64,000 bases of DNA from Sedimentisphaerales bacterium (lineage in GTDB: Bacteria; Planctomycetota; Phycisphaerae; Sedimentisphaerales; SM23-30), in the NCBI GenBank assembly GCA_963663965.2, contig CAXXFK010000042.1, positions 32,001 to 96,000 on the forward strand. Reading direction: 5' to 3'. Of the stretch, positions 12,140-19,247 are shown in pieces. The first letter of the stretch is position 1, and each line of letters begins with the position of its first letter. Both the position numbers and the translations under genes were made by a program. The notes beneath the pieces are model-generated. The model was not told the origin of the DNA, made no database searches, and was given only the letters and a program-made list of their open reading frames with translations.

Positions 12140-12332
12140 GCTAATAATCCTTTCCGTTACGATTGAAAATCAGTTTAGAGTTATAACGGGATAAACTCGC
12201 GATTTATTGTATGGATAATATCAGCCTGCATCCAGAGGTTGGGAGCGGCTATGTGCGCACGTGGATTGGTCCGACTTGAATTCTGGATCAAGACGGTAGC
12301 TAGAATGTATGGTTGTGGTAGTTGAGGTTACT

Positions 12333-13172
12333 TTATTTCTTATCCTCCTGGATGGGGATGTCGGCGGGTGGTTTGGTGGGGATGCCGAGGGCGTGGAGGG
12401 CTTCTTCGCCGTTCTGCTGGGAGAAGGTGTTGAGGGCTTCGTAGCGGTTACAGGCGTAACTGAAGACCTGGTCGTCAGTTACGCTGTGGTCTTTCATCAA
12501 TTCGGGGAGTCGGTCTTTGATGTATTCGGGGGCGAGTTTGGCTTCGCTGGGGTGTGTGGGGATTCTGGGTGGGTCGGGGATGTGGACGCGGGGTAAGTCG
12601 GGAAATGGGTACTCTGGGGGGTAGGCATTGGGTTCGTTTGGTTTTTGTTGTAATTGCAACTGTTGCAGTAGCTTAAGATTGGCCTGGAAGGTACGATTGA
12701 GGTGGGCTTCGTAGCGGGCCAGGCAGTTGAAGGCGGGGACTTCGAGGGTGAAGGCGGTGCCGACTTCGTTGTGGCGGGGCAGGTAGATACTCGAATGGGC
12801 GAAGGGCTGGTCGATGACGGTGTCTTTGCGAATTTCTTCGTTGGTGAGTCGGAGTTGATAGACGCGGGCATCGATCATTTCGGCTTCGATGCGGCCGATC
12901 CGTTCCAGTCGCCAGGCGGTGGAGACTATCTGGTCGGCGATGTGGCGCTGGAGATAGGTGGTGGGTTTGAGGTCTTGCAGCAATGCGGCGCGGAACTCGA
13001 GGTAAGTGAGTTCGGACTCGCCGGGGACAATGAGATGGGCGGGGTCCCGGCCACTGAGGCCGTGCTTGATGGCATTTTTCGATGAGATGGCCTTGCCTTC
13101 GGGGGTTTTGGGGCCGGTGGATTTCTGGGCGTTGCGACGGTTGGCTCTGAGTCTTCTTAGTGACGATGACAT
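12333..13172 (-). CDS. Hypothetical protein with N-terminal 'ANRRNAQKSTGPKTPEGK...NAIKHGL' motif (HGGxSTG-related), helical core and Pro-rich tail
   Basis: AGGAGG RBS (13181-13186); recognisable STGPxT motif; function unknown. Confidence 0.8.
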   Translation of the reverse strand: MSSSLRRLRANRRNAQKSTGPKTPEGKAISSKNAIKHGLSGRDPAHLIVPGESELTYLEFRAALLQDLKPTTYLQRHIADQIVSTAWRLERIGRIEAEMIDARVYQLRLTNEEIRKDTVIDQPFAHSSIYLPRHNEVGTAFTLEVPAFNCLARYEAHLNRTFQANLKLLQQLQLQQKPNEPNAYPPEYPFPDLPRVHIPDPPRIPTHPSEAKLAPEYIKDRLPELMKDHSVTDDQVFSYACNRYEALNTFSQQNGEEALHALGIPTKPPADIPIQEDKK

Positions 13173-13226
13173 GGTTGGTACCTCCTGTTAAAAATAGGTT
13201 AAAAGTTAAATCAGTCGAATCTTTGA

Positions 13227-13802
13227 TAAGTTTAAGTTTTGGTTGATGTTATGGTCATATTTTTTGTTGTTGGCTTCGTTTCGTTTTATGTTGGTATTCG
13301 CTGCGCTCATGTTAGTTTTATCTATCTCTTTTGCGAGATATCCTGTCGGTACGCCTCTACGAGGCGAGGGTTAAAAATTTCAATCTCATGATCGTTACCC
13401 AGGGTGGCGCTCGTCCCGTTATACGGGATTCGCTCTACCCTGGGCTGTTTTATGCCGGCCCGTTGGGCTGCTTTGGGTATCCGCCATTTGGCGGATGAAA
13501 TTATTATTTTCGTTAAGCTCATTTTGTGGTTGAGGTTATGGTCATTATTTTCATCATTGGGTTCGTTTCGTTTAGCATTAGTTTTCGCTGCGCTCATGTT
13601 GGTTTTATCTATCTCTTTTGCGAGATATCCTGCAGGTACGCCTCTGCGAGGCGTGGGTTAAAAATATACGTTTCGGATTCGGGTATTCCCGCCAATGAAT
13701 TGGCGGGCTAGGCGCTTTTGATCTCTCCGAGATATTATTTGTATCCGCCTTGAGGCGGATGTTGTTTTATTTTTTGGTAAGCCCAATTCATATTGGAGTT
13801 CA
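13227..13802. repeat. Modular hairpin repeat array 1 (two full units, A then B cassette, plus a degenerate third start)
   Basis: Unit starts at 13227, 13514 and 13778; shared blocks TTCGCTGCGCTCATG, TATCTCTTTTGCGAGATA, ACGCCTCT(G/A)CGAGGCG and ATCCGCC..GGCGGAT. Confidence 0.92.
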
Positions 13803-14123
13803 CAAGGCGACGCATGCACCCACAAGCTGCGCTTGAAGGGTGGCACCCGGCACACAGCTTAACCCCCAAAAATGCGCAGAGAATCTCTGTAGGCGTGGCC
13901 GAGTGGGTGTGGGGCACACCGGGGGTTCGGGGGCTATTGGGGCGACTTTGGGATTATAGACTGGTGTTGTAATATAGTCAAATAAATAATATAGTATTGT
14001 GTAATAAAAACACAAATATATTTAAGTTTCGTTATGAATAAATATGGGACAAATGGGGCCGATGGGACGTATGTGAGTGTAAGATACTGAAATGTATGTT
14101 GTTATGGTGAATATGGTGGTGGG

Positions 14124-14183
14124 ATTGGGAATAATGGGAATAATGGGAATAATGGGAGTTATGGGAGTTATGGGAACTTTGGG
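14124..14183. repeat. 9-bp tandem repeat ATGGGA(A/G)T(A/T)
   Basis: About 6 copies in tandem; a degenerate triplet also occurs at 14044-14070. Confidence 0.85.
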
Positions 14184-14228
14184 AGGAGATCTTTGGGGTA
14201 ATGTCTTTAAACTAGTATTCACTGTGAT

Positions 14229-14537
14229 TCATAAATGCTGGTCGCCGGGGTTCTCCGCGAACAGCCGGTAGCCGCTGCGGGTGATGGCGGTCAGGCGGTA
14301 GGTGGTTCCGGGCGGGCCGGCGGTGAACTGGCCGGCGGGGTCGGTGGTGACGGTGATGGTGCGAGACTCGCCGCCGTCAGGCGGGGCAATTTCCAGCCGG
14401 AGGGCGGCCTGGCCGACCGGTTCGCCGTACTGGTCCACAACGCGGTCGGTGCCCTCGGCCGGCCGGGGCAACAGGGTCAGGATGGTCAGGATCAATACGG
14501 CGGACAGTGAAAGGATGGTTCGTTGATGGTGCTGCAT
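14229..14537 (-). CDS. Short exported protein fragment (carboxypeptidase-regulatory-like beta domain), probably truncated
   Basis: AAGGAG RBS, signal peptide, 'VVDQYGEPV..A' and 'TTDPAGQF' motifs; GC-rich. Confidence 0.5.
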   Translation of the reverse strand: MQHHQRTILSLSAVLILTILTLLPRPAEGTDRVVDQYGEPVGQAALRLEIAPPDGGESRTITVTTDPAGQFTAGPPGTTYRLTAITRSGYRLFAENPGDQHL

Positions 14538-14720
14538 ATCGGGCTCCTTTGTTTTTAGGGCTTGCTGGAATTTTGCTTCATTGTTTGCGGAATTTCTATC
14601 AGGGTATTATTGCACTCTTTGTTATCACTGGTTTTATTGGTTCGTCTTTCTGATTTGTTGTCTTAATCCATCCACAAGTTTCACTGCGTTACGCTTGAAG
14701 TGTTATGTAAATTTTGGTCT

Positions 14721-15092
14721 TTATTCGAAACTAAATGAGAATAATTTATCTGTAATCAATAATAATACTGACCGACATTTTAATTCAAAACTATTTTCGT
14801 CATCATGCAAGACACAAAGATGTTCATCTTCCATTTCGTTATTAGAGTATTCAATAGTTAATGTTAATTCATTATATCTAAATTTTCCACAAAAGAAATC
14901 GCATCCTAAACAGCATATATACAAATGTTCTTCTTTATCATCCCTACTCAAACGAATAGCAAATCTTCTCCCTAATGATATAGTATAATGCCATAATTTT
15001 GCTTCTGACGCCTCCCATTGTCTTAATACAGGTGGTATTTGTTGGGGGGAAAAAGTAGAATCTACTTGTTTATGAACTCTGTCCCATTCCAT
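14721..15092 (-). CDS. Putative immunity protein of the Rhs toxin
   Basis: Small AT-rich ORF overlapping the 3' end of the Rhs C-terminal domain ORF. Confidence 0.6.
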   Translation of the reverse strand: MEWDRVHKQVDSTFSPQQIPPVLRQWEASEAKLWHYTISLGRRFAIRLSRDDKEEHLYICCLGCDFFCGKFRYNELTLTIEYSNNEMEDEHLCVLHDDENSFELKCRSVLLLITDKLFSFSFE

Positions 15093-17408
15093 TTCACATG
15101 ATCTCCATTTTTTATGAATTTTACTTTGTCCAAAAGATTTTCTTCGATCAAATAATTTAGTTCAGCATTCGTAATATTGCCACATGAAAAACCTTTAGAT
15201 CTATCTTTTAAAAATATCTGTACATCAAAGTTAGACACATCAAAAACAATCTCATCTGCATTTTTAACGGCCTCTTCAAATGATTTTCTAAAATAAAAAT
15301 CATTCCCCCATGCTCTCCCCCAATCAACTCTTGTCAGGCCAGCTTTTTGCCAACCACCTTCATAATATTTTATAACACCTCTTGGCAATCGATGAAGATC
15401 ATCATCAAGGCCTAATCCAATTATTCTCTTTTTATTGTTAGAAGTCAATCCGTATTTACTGTTTATCAAGTTTATTTCATTAACAAAATCATCTCCAATT
15501 TTAATCCATTCTTGTCGATTGATAGCAGGAAAATCGTCGATTGATCCACTAATATAATTTGTGCTCAATTTTGGAAATCTGGAATTTGTCCATTGTAAAG
15601 ACTGTAATTTGGCTCCTATCTTTTGAAATGCAATATTCTCAATAATACCGTAAGCAATATTACCACTCGCCATACCAACAACCGGAGCGTTACCACAAGA
15701 TAAATCAGCTTTATATTGACTGATCATTATTGATACATGTTCAGCTGATACATTTGTTAATGCCGCCATAAATGCCATCTCTTGAGTAGCATAATTATTT
15801 TTGCATTTATCGTATTCAATGAAAAAAGGCGTGGCGACAGTAGTAACAACTCCTTGAAATTTATTGATAGTCTCCGGCGGAGGGGTTTTAAAGAAATTAT
15901 CTACACTCTCAACAGTATTCGCCACATTAACAACAATTTGTGCTGCTCCAACTTTAATTACGGTCTCAACATTATCAGAGAATTGACTTGCTTTTCGTGT
16001 ACCTGGGCGAAATCCATATTTATTGAAATAAGAATCTTCAATTAATTCATAACGTTTCTGTTGCCTTTCCAACCCCAACAAATCCACCCCATTCACGCCC
16101 ATATAGGCGTTATAGAGGTTCAGGCCATCGGCGTATCCGGCCGGGTCTTCGCTGAGCCAGCGGCCGTGGACGGGGTCGTAGTCGCGGAAGTGGGTATGCG
16201 CCCATCGGGCGTTTCTATCGTGTCAGCATCAGGGCGGATATTAATCTGAAGATTCGTTGACAGACTATCACAAATGAATGAGGCAATGCCTCTTACCCGT
16301 AAAGGGATCGCGAACCATGCCGCACCAGCCGAAGGGGATATATCGGGAACGGCCGATATTGTAGCCGGTATTGTCGGGGGTGTTTTCGGTGGTTCCATCT
16401 GCCGCAAAGGATTTGCACAGGCCGGTGGAATTGTATACCCAATGGGTATGAATATTCCTGATCGCTCGCAAGCTAAGTTTTTACTCGTGTAGAACTAATG
16501 CACGGCCCAGCGGGCATTTTCAATGGTAAGCTGCAGAATTGAGCTTTTCGACGAGCTGGCCTACGTTCGCACTGCCGGGTGTGGCATCGACCACGCCCAT
16601 CAGCGTGCCGCGGTCGTCGGTGATGGGCACATAGACCGTTTGCGGGGTGGTCTGGCCATTATAATTTTCGACCAGGGCCAGCCGGTTGATGCCTTCTTCA
16701 GAGAGCACCTGACAAAATAAGTTATCTACTCCGACCGGCTGCAAAAGTCACCCGCTGCGTTCTCGGGGCAAAACATCCTCGACAACCCATAGCAGGGTTG
16801 CCTGCGGGTGTTTTACCCCTGCGGCCTTGCCGGTAACTTTTTCGCTCGGTCTCGTTACGATAATTATTCAGTCAGGCACTCTTATAGTAGCGGCGTTTGA
16901 GCTTGTTTTGCAGCGCGGCCGGGGCCGAATCGGCATACCATTCCTCCACGAGCATGACCCCGTCGTAAACCAGTTCCTTGTCGTGGAATTCGCTGGAGGC
17001 CGGCAGACTGGCAGGATTGCCGCTACCGGTGGGCCATTTGTAATAATGGCCCACGCGCCGGCCGAAGGCGTCGTAGCGGTAATAGACTTCGACAGGGATG
17101 TCAGCATCTGGGCTGTCGCCATCCTGCGTCTTGTCGATGACCCGGGTACAGCGCGAATCGGGGAGATTGTCGTTCCACTGGTAGCGGTGGTGATAATCTT
17201 CGTCGATATGGCCGGTATTGGCGGCGCTATAGCCAAAATAGAGGTTGCCGGGGATCTGGTCCGGGACCATGTGGGTGATTTCAACAGAACACAGGCGGGC
17301 GTTTTGCGACCCGGCGCGAGAAAGAGTAAGCTTGCGGTCCGCGCCGACAAAAACGGTCTGTTCGCCGGCGAGGAGGGGTTCGGTCTGACTGGGCGATTTG
17401 ATATTTAT
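15062..17408 (-). pseudogene. 5'-truncated, interrupted Rhs-repeat polymorphic toxin (core plus AT-rich C-terminal toxin domain)
   Basis: Joined reading gives YRYDAFGRR...KRRYY|EEGINRLA...EKL|YNSTG...PFGWCG..DPFTGK|HTHFRDYDPVHGRWLSEDPAGYADGLNLY..VNGVDLLGL-CT; three inserts; no start codon or RBS at the 5' edge. Confidence 0.85.
16702..16882. mobile_element. MITE-like element inserted in the Rhs gene
   Basis: Imperfect TIRs AGAGCACCTGACAAAATAA / TTATTCAGTCAGGCACTCT; internal ATCCTCGACA...GCCTGCGG shared with the other MITEs; removal restores the Rhs frame (YYTEEG). Confidence 0.75.
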
Positions 17409-17409
17409 T

Positions 17410-18880
17410 CATGTTGGGTTTCCCGTTAGATCGGGATTTTGCTGTGCTCAACGTTTTGTGTTGGTATTCGCTGCGCTCATGTTAGTTTTATCTATCTCTT
17501 TTGCGAGATAACCTGGCGGTACGCCTCTGCGAGGCGTGGGTTAAAATTTTAATTTCGGGTTTGGTACCCAGGGTGTCGCTCGTCCCGATGGATCGGGACT
17601 CGCTCTGCCCTGGGCTATTTTATGCCGGCCCGTTGGGCCGCTTTGGGTATCCGCCATTTGGCGGCTGTTCGTTTTATTTTTAGTTAAGCTCATTTTAACG
17701 CTGAGGTTAGAGTGACATTTTTTCATCATTGGGTTCGTTTTGAATTTGGTATTCGCTGCGCTCATGGTTAGTTTTATCTATCTCTTTTGCGAGATATCCT
17801 GTCGGTACGCCTCTGCGAGGCGTGGGTTAAAAGTTTCAAACTCGGGTTCGGGTATTCCCGCCAATGAATTGGCGGGCTATGCGCTTTTGATCTCTTCGAG
17901 ATATCATTTGTATCCGCCTTGAGGCGGATGAGTTTTTATTTTTTGTTAAGCTCATTTCGTTGGTGAGGTTAGGGTTATTATTTTCATCATTGGGTTTCCC
18001 GATAGATCGGGATTATGCTGTGCTCAACGTTTTGTATTGGTATTCGCTGCGCTCATGGTTGGTTTTATCTATCTCTTTTGCGAGATATCCTGGCGGTACG
18101 CCTCTGCGAGGCGTGGGTTAAAAATTTAATTTCGTGTTTGTTACCCAGGGTGGCGCTCGTCCCGATGGATCGGGACTCGCTCTGCCCTGGGCTATTTTAT
18201 ACTTGCCCGTTGGGCCGCTTTGGGTATCCGCCGTTCGGCGGATGTTTTTTTATTTTTTGTTAAGCTCATTTTAACGCTGAGGTTAGAGTGACATTTTTTC
18301 ATCATTGGGTTTCCCGATAGCTCGGGATTTTGCTGTGCTCAACGTTTTGTAATGGTATTCGCTGCGCTCATGGTGGTTTTATCTTTCGCCTTCGGTGCGA
18401 AATCCTGCAGGTACGCCTCTGCGAGGCGTGGATTAATCAAAGTAGCAAGCAGGAAGTAGCAAAGTTTTCCCGCCAATGAATTGGCGGGCTAGGCGCTTTT
18501 GATCTCTTCGAGATATTATTTGTATCCGTCCTCCTGAGGCGGACCTGCGGCCTTGAGGCGGATGAGTTTTTATTTTTTGTTAAGCTCATTTCGTTGGTGA
18601 GGTTAGGGTTATTATTTTCATCATTGGGTTTCCCGATAGATCGGGATTTCGCTGTGCTCAACGTTTTGTATTGGTATTCGCTGCGCTCATGGCTGGTTAA
18701 ACCAGGATGGGCAACCGGGGGTTGCCCATGCTACGTTATCTTTCGCCTTCGGTGCGAAATCCTGTCGGTACGCCTCTGCGAGGCGTGGAAAAAATTAAAA
18801 AACAATCGTTGACCGGCGGTCTTACGACCCCGGCTAGAAACGGTCGGCTCCTCCTGAGGCGGATCTTCGACCTTCGGGCC
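17410..18880. repeat. Modular hairpin repeat array 2 (five units, cassettes A-B-A-B-C)
   Basis: TAAGCTCA-N9-TGAGGTTA boxes at 17685, 17947, 18261 and 18581; same scaffold as array 1. Confidence 0.95.
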
Positions 18881-19247
18881 TTTTACGTTTGGGTTGCCGG
18901 GTTGTGTTGTTTTTGCTGGCTTCCATTTCATTCGTACCTTATTAACAGTCAAAATAAATTGGCTGGTTGGGCCCGGTTCGTACGCTATCGCACCAAGCCA
19001 CTAAGATAAACAGCCATTTAGACAGGATAATCCCGATCCCGAGGGCTCGGGGTTTCGCTTTGCTCAATATCCGGGACTTTCAGCCGATCAACAGGATCAA
19101 AAGTTCGGGATCATTAAAATATCTTGTAAGATGTAGTCATTACTTTGCTTATAAAACATAAGAACAAAAAGCTTGCTAAGAAAACAAAGAAATGATGGAT
19201 TGTAGTACGAAAAGATATTACTTGTGATTTGGTAAAAAAGGTTCATT

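Follow-up and report, generated by a model that had tools for sequence, protein, structure and literature searches.

What holds together a hypothetical gene, the structured repeat arrays beside it and a short DNA word that recurs in both? This question is raised by a stretch of 64,000 nucleotides from a Sedimentisphaerales bacterium (called the window here), for which an earlier note had proposed a system of a gene with STGP and NAIKHG motifs, repeat arrays and Rhs cargo linked by a shared 14-mer. The gene is the core of a defined, mosaic unit, present in this genome in 26 intact copies under purifying selection, and it is linked to a DNA motif that stands in a fixed geometry with a dyad. The explanation that we favour is a tentative one, to be taken as a distinct possibility: gene and motif may be a protein like the phage terminase small subunit (TerS) and its own packaging (pac)-like site, which occur in satellite-like elements and survive as stand-alone chromosomal modules. 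The unit in the window is laid out as follows.

About 12254–14237 (minus strand): complete unit, in the order promoter, motif/IHF-like array, gene, end hairpin.
13982–14237 (minus strand): AT-rich left arm, closing at a CTTTATAAA/CACAG-type box (33 promoter-upstream regions aligned).
13953–13981 (minus strand): sigma-70-type promoter, TTGACT-N17-TATAAT.
13873–13946 (minus strand): conserved GC-rich leader with a TGCGCA box at its end (median identity 0.81, 22 copies).
13219–13860 (minus strand): array 1, the 5' leader of the gene, with two motif + TAAC-N17-CTTA modules among hairpins that resemble repetitive extragenic palindromes (REPs).
13270–13281 and 13557–13568 (minus strand): motifs of array 1.
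13181–13187 (minus strand): ribosome-binding site CAGGAGG, which precedes the start codon in the 26 copies too.
12333–13172 (minus strand): STGP/NAxKHG gene, 279 amino acids (open reading frame (ORF), homolog comparison, structure model, 26 intact genome copies); the protein has a TerS-like N-terminal module (residues 1–42), a helical hairpin core (54–176) and a 97-residue tail after the motif.
12628–12639 (minus strand): in-gene DNA motif AAACGAACCCAA, read as PNEPN.
12254–12332 (minus strand): right end of the unit, of fixed length and variable sequence (alignment and folding of 26 downstream regions), with TAAC immediately 3' of the stop, a hairpin at 12271–12296 and a TGCGCA box at 12254–12259.

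The ORF and the three exact occurrences of CATTGGGTTCGTTT in the window, at 12626, 13555 and 17727, are as the earlier note had them. Its claim that the repeats start just upstream of the gene also stands, with the distance corrected from about 55 to 47 bp before the start codon (first repeat family at 13219).

A tblastn search gave the 26 intact full-length copies, spread over 19 contigs, together with one tail-only and one start-only fragment of the gene. Read support is in line with this copy number: the summed contig depth is about 100 over the gene and 2–4 on the flanks. The promoter lies 529–1536 bp upstream in 22 of the 26 copies and is followed by the conserved leader and a mosaic array of 0.5–1.5 kb. 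Of the remaining four, one is at a contig end and three carry, within the array, an ORF of transposase-like type. Homology among the copies begins about 190–250 bp before the promoter and stops about 80 bp after the stop codon; beyond the left-arm box, identity drops to background, and the right-end regions (median identity 0.57) are unrelated past about 80 nt. The neighbours are unrelated host genes (named by reading of the sequences) in either orientation, with no orientation bias downstream (14 same, 12 opposite). No integrase, regulator or primase/replication module was found within 12254–14237 or beside the 26 copies. The gene copies are 89–96 % identical, with a ratio of nonsynonymous to synonymous polymorphism (pN/pS) of 0.11 overall and 0.06 in the N-terminal module. 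Between 59 and 79 % of informative site pairs fail the four-gamete test, and the unit ends (median 0.57–0.63) are more diverged than the gene and than its synonymous sites. Because of this identity range, the low pN/pS, the four-gamete failures and the diverged ends, the copies read as old loci that are kept under selection and homogenised in their interior by recombination, and not as a recent transposition burst. Within the left arm, at 14126–14170, a short tandem 9-mer of the TGGGAATAA type is present in differing numbers in related copies. We dropped dif/Xer as an explanation of this arm, since the spacing is, by eye, not 6 bp between arms.

The second part of the unit is the motif. In the window, four matches to CATTGGGTTCGTTT at ≤2 mismatches were found against 0.70 expected (maximum 3 in 100 shuffles); a variant lies at 13270–13281, and four further copies in a second array are split by a small hairpin, at 17414, 17990, 18305 and 18624. 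Exact copies and a variant of the proposed 14-mer are thus present, but the conserved word is shorter, 11–12 bases of the form AAACRAASCCA[A]. Of the 26 in-gene 12-mers, 25 are identical and one has the allowed C-to-G variant. Its four synonymous positions are fixed in 26/26 copies, which has a chance probability of about 0.04; outside the motif, no variation is seen at 50 of 126 four-fold sites and at 48 of 100 two-fold sites. As the earlier note described, the peptide PNEPN (residues 178–182) falls at the border between helical core and tail; the last long helix of the model ends at residue 176.

We then compared two sets of homologs. The first comprises 82 loci, namely the best 80 of 537 genome matches and two viral loci, several of them from the same few genomes. 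In 58/82, a strict motif closely follows the helical core, at 400–1100 bp from the gene start, in agreement with the predicted enrichment around homologous genes; the word travels with the gene family. That interval holds 98 motifs in 54 kb, the other 539 kb hold 8, and the reversed control gave 5. Within the ORFs of these loci the motif is read in four frame/strand combinations. In the second set, from metagenomes (73 of 80 loci parsed), the motif is found in 48/73, and in 29 of the 40 displayed loci it lies within about 16 nt past the stop, on the opposite strand. Of the adjacent motif pairs in homologs, 20/40 are direct repeats spaced 88–91 bp apart with the dyad between them. Because the motif is read in several frames and on both strands, is often outside the ORF and has invariant synonymous positions, these comparisons mark AAACRAASCCA as a DNA site and not a peptide feature, as the earlier note had supposed. 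The NEPN, ERTQ, TNP and GFV peptides in the tails of many hypothetical proteins would then be read-through of one DNA word.

The motif is also abundant outside the units. This genome contains 258 strict 12-mers against 9 for the control, about two thirds of them outside units and often clustered. TAAC follows at +18 in 120/258 and xTTA at +39 in 119/258, together making an IHF-like dyad. The IHF consensus matches at 14.7 % of the genome motifs and at 3.4 % of shuffled ones (shuffle maximum 7.4 %); a single HU/IHF-family gene is present in the host genome. In a comparison of 41 relatives, all five genomes with 17–258 motifs carry the gene, four other carriers have 1–5, and the 32 non-carriers have ≤13 (Fisher p=1.7e-4, kin not being independent; a permuted word is flat). 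The expected association of motif and gene was thus borne out, large expansions being confined to carriers in this group; in a sample of 150 genomes of the phylum the association is weaker, and one genome without the gene has 29 motifs. Genomes G030 (L175–L181) and G036 (L170–L174) also contain gene-less modules made of promoter, ribosome-binding site and motif-dyad-motif, which end in variable tandem runs of 10–11-base motif variants. At L039, about +730 from the gene start, and at the right end of L177, modules abut an apparent tmRNA 3' end and a tRNA gene (by eye).

Such a distribution would also follow if the protein were a new transposase or recombinase (conserved residues R12, H37, W87, R91 and Y154) and mobilised the unit together with its gene-less derivatives, in the way that RAYTs mobilise REPINs. 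The presence of the gene in all five genomes with 17 or more motifs, the gene-less promoter-motif modules and the placement of this genome's protein with Acidobacteriota and not Planctomycetota in an unrooted tree (99/83, on a long branch), as after horizontal gain, speak for this explanation. Its weak points are more numerous: no catalytic fold emerged from the fold searches, four of the nine gene-bearing relatives stay at background motif counts, no identical young copies occur among the 26 with their diverged ends, and copies at orthologous loci are retained between species. No target duplication or terminal inverted repeat is apparent in the end alignments, in which empty sites were not compared. 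No known transposase domain was found in the protein (Pfam, NCBIfam and further family searches). We consider a transposase improbable. In short-read contigs from two runs of one sample, neither an empty allele nor a circle joint was seen.

The arrays raise the further question of whether the functional part is a long structured 5' RNA, the protein binding its own transcript or the motif as RNA. A strong consensus promoter precedes the array in 22/26 copies, the leader (13173–13946) folds with z = −4.4, better than 20/20 shuffles, and the hairpin modules are found almost solely in arrays. Against this, motifs are found in both orientations with respect to the gene, in most homologs no hairpin arrays accompany the motif, the unit extends 250 bp upstream of the promoter, and palindromes fold on any strand. 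An RNA function is, in our estimate, quite improbable. Rfam gave no match at gathering score; the best, Acido-Lenti-1 with 26.3 bits against 37, falls on an array hairpin (17608–17640), hinting that this Rfam motif may itself be a REP-like module. We rejected the hairpins as REPs of the resident Y1 transposases, 0/16 modules lying within 0.9 kb of the genome's 11 Y1 matches. Two Y1 loci have look-alike hairpins by eye.

What kind of protein does the gene encode? Homologs are numerous: a word search returned 969, and clustering at 50 % identity gave 52,652 clusters, 36,094 of them at E≤1e-10. No family was obtained for the protein from Pfam, NCBIfam, PHROG, PDB sequence or ESM Atlas searches, and 93 family members gave no Pfam match. 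The model is all-helical: two short helices at the N-terminus frame the STGP loop, and a long helical hairpin extends to residue 176. The check by structure prediction and Foldseek that the earlier note had suggested yielded only generic helical hairpins (PDB and viral models, with VIA-align; none at E≤0.001, best Z 7.3–7.4), and such non-specific results do not show a new fold. A short relative, searched against viral models, placed TerS at ranks 2, 3, 15 and 47 of 50, non-significantly (E 0.69–2.0). Sequence profiles were more informative. Among the 93 members we noted weak matches to the TerS PHROGs 9231 (four), 26270 (two) and 1889 (one), with best E values of 0.002–0.006. The single phage match by tblastn is a Bacillus phage gene directly before the annotated terminase, and this gene matches TerS PHROGs at E 6e-7 and 4e-5. 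We collected 49 distinct viral ORFs with the TGPxTxEGK..N..KHG module; in 12 of the 36 scanned, the next ORF is the terminase large subunit (TerL) by PHROG. Alignment of the family with two TerS groups by hhalign covers 40–43 N-terminal columns with probabilities of 99.4 and 98.8, which indicates N-terminal homology to TerS. A packaging-module context next to TerL was not found, the neighbours of the 26 copies and of the homologs being unrelated genes; by sequence, the family has the module of about 40 residues in common with TerS, yet fails TerS membership on gene context.

The genomic surroundings of relatives supply the second line of evidence. Those with a P-x-A-V-D-V-D-V tail frequently show the order recombinase, helix-turn-helix regulators, primase/helicase, gene, motif and a conserved unknown gene, which suggests a satellite-like context. 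Of the longer metagenome loci, 8/36 have an integrase or serine recombinase no farther than about 3.2 kb away. Primase/helicase domains upstream were confirmed in seven hand-picked loci and one plasmid, and both integrase and primase/helicase surround the gene in L284, L293, L295, L307, L314 and L251. In an unrooted tree of 68 rows, the satellite-like forms fall largely apart from the stand-alone chromosomal ones (3 changes against 22.4 shuffled). The unknown gene that follows gene and motif in the satellite-like elements measures about 175–215 amino acids, its likeness judged by eye, and had no PHROG or Pfam match. It lies at:

L284:6676–7281
L293:6623–7180
L294:3877–4497
L295:6711–7268
L299:2326–2910
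L305:6596–7240
L307:6598–7221
L288:6742–7266

These data can be combined as follows. The basic N-terminal module in common with phage TerS would sit on a helical hairpin, probably in an oligomer. The protein would bind its own cis site AAACRAASCCA, and host IHF/HU would bend the DNA between the copies, like P1 PacA at pac. In the integrase-primase satellite-like relatives, gene and site would let a helper phage package the element DNA. The stand-alone module of this genome, which may descend from the satellite form, would start packaging of itself and of flanking DNA, and this would keep every copy under selection. Ordinary homologous recombination or gene conversion would shuffle copies and arrays, swap the flanks and drag the decayed Rhs gene along.

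Several observations weigh against this explanation. Packaging by itself creates no new chromosomal copies. When the N-terminal motif is left out, the core aligns with the two TerS groups at probabilities of only 1.3 and 0.7, compared with 0.1 for reversed controls. Choosing the viral set by the N-terminal motif also makes the TerS match partly circular. The phage TerS loci with the same module contain 0 strict motifs in 234 kb; the module alone therefore does not dictate the motif site, and the idea that phages sharing the module have the motif too was rejected. IMG/VR yielded two family loci in all. No clear terminase large subunit was found in the genome (two weak phrog_2 matches, E 1e-4 and 5e-4), and phrog_9231 had no match in 151 genomes of the phylum. 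In the phylum sample, the 10 gene-bearing genomes have one copy each and 0–5 motifs, which is background. A recombinase is absent within 3.2 kb in 28/36 metagenome loci, and the tree allows no rooting. Lastly, the single-copy homolog retained in family f42 (L246:5165–5854, L247:4811–5407, L248:4783–5409, L250:2086–2688) consists of the core only, with no TerS-like module, and is possibly a domesticated form. It adjoins an acyl-carrier/fabZ/fabF-like cluster in most genomes seen (names by reading).

The DNA to the left of the unit bears on whether the motif acts as a junction. It contains the following features.

14229–14537 (minus strand): small exported-type gene, the left flank in a sub-lineage of copies (full in three, partial in two).
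14721–15092 (minus strand): putative Rhs immunity gene, by position, with no family match.
15062–16222 (minus strand): end of the Rhs core (DPxG...GLNLY) and low-GC C-terminal toxin region, which adjoins the unit and is not a constant part of it.
16434–16531 (strand not assigned): short dispersed repeat of 98 bp inside the Rhs gene, with 81 near-full genome copies.
16702–16882 (strand not assigned): second dispersed repeat inside the Rhs gene, with 8 near-full genome copies.
16872–17408 (minus strand): 5'-most Rhs core fragment, which abuts array 2 (junction spanned by contigs).
17405–19000 (minus strand): array 2, an orphan with the same modules and five motifs (four split), no promoter and no gene.
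19003–19213: two further dispersed repeats, with 13 and 16 near-full copies, at the place expected for the promoter and leader of array 2.

The small gene, which the sub-lineage of five copies has in common as flank, matches PF13620 below cut-off (E=5e-6). A split motif lies 10 nt short of the end of array 2 at the Rhs frame. In the gene, the 97-codon tail is placed exactly between motif and spacer, and at C15:155408 the same spacer directly follows a motif. At one orthologous site, the genomes G030, G190 and G191 keep the downstream side of the motif position, and each has different DNA upstream of it. The end of array 2, the gene tail insertion and this switch keep alive a role of the motif as a junction. 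The proposed breakpoints at the motif are partly supported by these places; 16 other gene-less arrays end 21–297 nt from their last motif, many just past the dyad.

The same switch counts for another explanation, in which the protein binds the motif for replication or recombination of the element, as an origin or synapse organiser or an accessory of primase or integrase, and the stand-alone copies persist as DNA-architecture sites spread by host recombination. A geometry of motif, IHF site and motif also suits recombination sites such as att and res. A module borders an inversion, and four Acidobacteriota locus pairs have the downstream flank in common and the upstream flank not, or only rearranged. 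The gene lies directly behind primase-helicases, where phage-inducible chromosomal islands (PICIs) carry their origin, according to the part of PMC6092414 that we draw on. The TerS-type N-terminal module would be left unaccounted for, and the satellite-type loci mostly have one motif and not iterons. We regard a replication or recombination role as somewhat unlikely, and as less probable than the packaging explanation.

Could the arrays instead be places of crossover, between which cargo such as Rhs modules is captured, as the earlier note had proposed? The Rhs frame is open from 17408 to 16875 (178 codons) and ends beside the split motif, as that note observed. Short-read contigs covering 16784–17459 and 16779–17459 span the Rhs/array 2 junction without differences, so it is not an assembly artefact. 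Capture would also fit the gene tail inserted exactly behind the motif, the second copy of the unit with the Rhs C-terminal part on C3 and the Rhs-like remnants upstream of the C19 copy. The Rhs gene is, however, decayed and cut by the multicopy repeats 16434–16531 and 16702–16882. Only one of the genome's seven Rhs-core signatures, that of the window, lies near a gene copy, and the 113 nearest neighbours of homolog loci L021–L102 include no Rhs or integrase. The 16 other gene-less arrays end away from the motif, and the duplicated segments described below end at other repeats. The Rhs toxin remnant beside the unit thus looks incidental from its sequence context. Rhs as regular cargo did not hold up, these comparisons do not support capture of Rhs at the motif as a general feature, and we consider the crossover-capture model very unlikely.

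Island segments recur on C3, C10, C19 and C32 with their ends at other repeats, which fits flank exchange by homologous recombination or strain variation. Second copies are seen at contig ends (C3:50532–52758, C10:513–1012, C32:169883–172191); these are 92–99.8 % identical and carry frameshifts. For the C3, C10 and C32 duplicates, a second copy and a strain variant both fit; depth did not decide, and assembly contamination is 5.4 %. The duplicated segment on C10 ends exactly at the edge of the 16434–16531 repeat, and C3 seems to be linked to C10 by an inserted element that shows an 8-bp duplication. The repeats 16702–16882, 19003–19097 and 19086–19213 have 8, 13 and 16 near-full copies, the first with terminal inverted repeats by eye. 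Elsewhere the genome has 11 Y1 transposase (PF01797) and nine reverse transcriptase matches, none tied to units. Five of the latter (C2, C6, C21, C25 and C28) have identical scores and frames of 580–583 amino acids, and are probably one recently spread retroelement.

What would follow from the packaging explanation? For an unnamed family of tens of thousands of clusters, there is now a unit with defined limits, a candidate for its cis site, a relative in phages and a setting like that of satellites, and therefore its function becomes testable. A bolder extension, which we think unlikely, is that these units form a very large, undescribed class of minimal packaging parasites, in which a TerS-derived gene and a pac-like site left phage satellites, settled in dozens of copies in the chromosomes of phyla that include Planctomycetota and Acidobacteriota, and seeded hundreds of gene-less start sites. 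If so, any compatible helper phage would make the whole chromosome transducible DNA, and the units would amount to a distributed system like a gene-transfer agent without its own particle. If the sites do start packaging, chromosomal genes would have a new way to be transferred at high frequency in soil and sediment phyla that have been little studied.

How does the unit compare with known systems? A literature search, mostly of titles and abstract starts, with few subscription papers and with supplements outside it, found no description of gene, motif or unit. TerS of PHROGs 9231, 1889 and 26270 has, like the family, a module of about 40 residues (RRNAxKSTGPxTxEGKxxSxxNAxKHG) followed by helices. 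The core is without detectable homology to phage TerS, and no terminase large subunit, portal or capsid gene is adjacent; unlike phage TerS, the family is chromosomal and multicopy, with an 11-base site that those phages lack. The HGGxSTG domain NF041373 was matched by one family member at E 0.17 only. We take 14721–17408 to resemble an Rhs orphan toxin-immunity module, with its core end, low-GC C-terminus and small downstream gene, but the copy here is decayed, interrupted by repeats and no regular neighbour of the unit. In comparison with an integron cassette, the right end has a hairpin as well as TAAC at the stop; a GTTRRRY end is not seen by eye, and each copy has its own promoter.

In the parts of PMC6092414 and PMC9618062 that bear on the question, terS follows pri-rep in PICIs and serves in the recognition of the PICI's own pac. 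Set against the PICIs, Staphylococcus aureus pathogenicity islands (SaPIs) and marine virion-encapsidated integrative mobile elements (VEIMEs) of these excerpts, relatives of our gene likewise lie in integrase, regulator and primase/helicase elements, with the gene at the terS position and the site at the gene end. Integrase and primase, by contrast, are lacking from the copies of this genome, and in the relatives a conserved unknown gene follows in place of known interference genes. P1 has its pac site within pacA, where repeats surround an IHF site (PMC10028697, in excerpt). The unit similarly has short repeated words in or at the gene flanking an IHF-like site, and many homologs have direct repeats about 90 bp apart; the 11-mer, however, is without GATC, there is no PacB partner, and the likeness is one of layout. 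Mosaic palindrome arrays beside a gene, with repeats that expand in gene-carrying genomes, are also a trait of REP/bacterial interspersed mosaic element (BIME) and RAYT-REPIN systems, as far as excerpts of PMC3733652, PMC3333891 and PMC6006769 describe them. Unlike RAYTs, the protein is no HUH/Y1 enzyme (no Pfam match, all-helical model), and the PF01797 matches lie elsewhere; unlike REPINs, none of the 16 hairpin modules compared is near a Y1 match, and they are scarce outside arrays. A selected, recombining unit of gene and site in 26 copies and without a recombinase is thus unmatched by the systems compared here.

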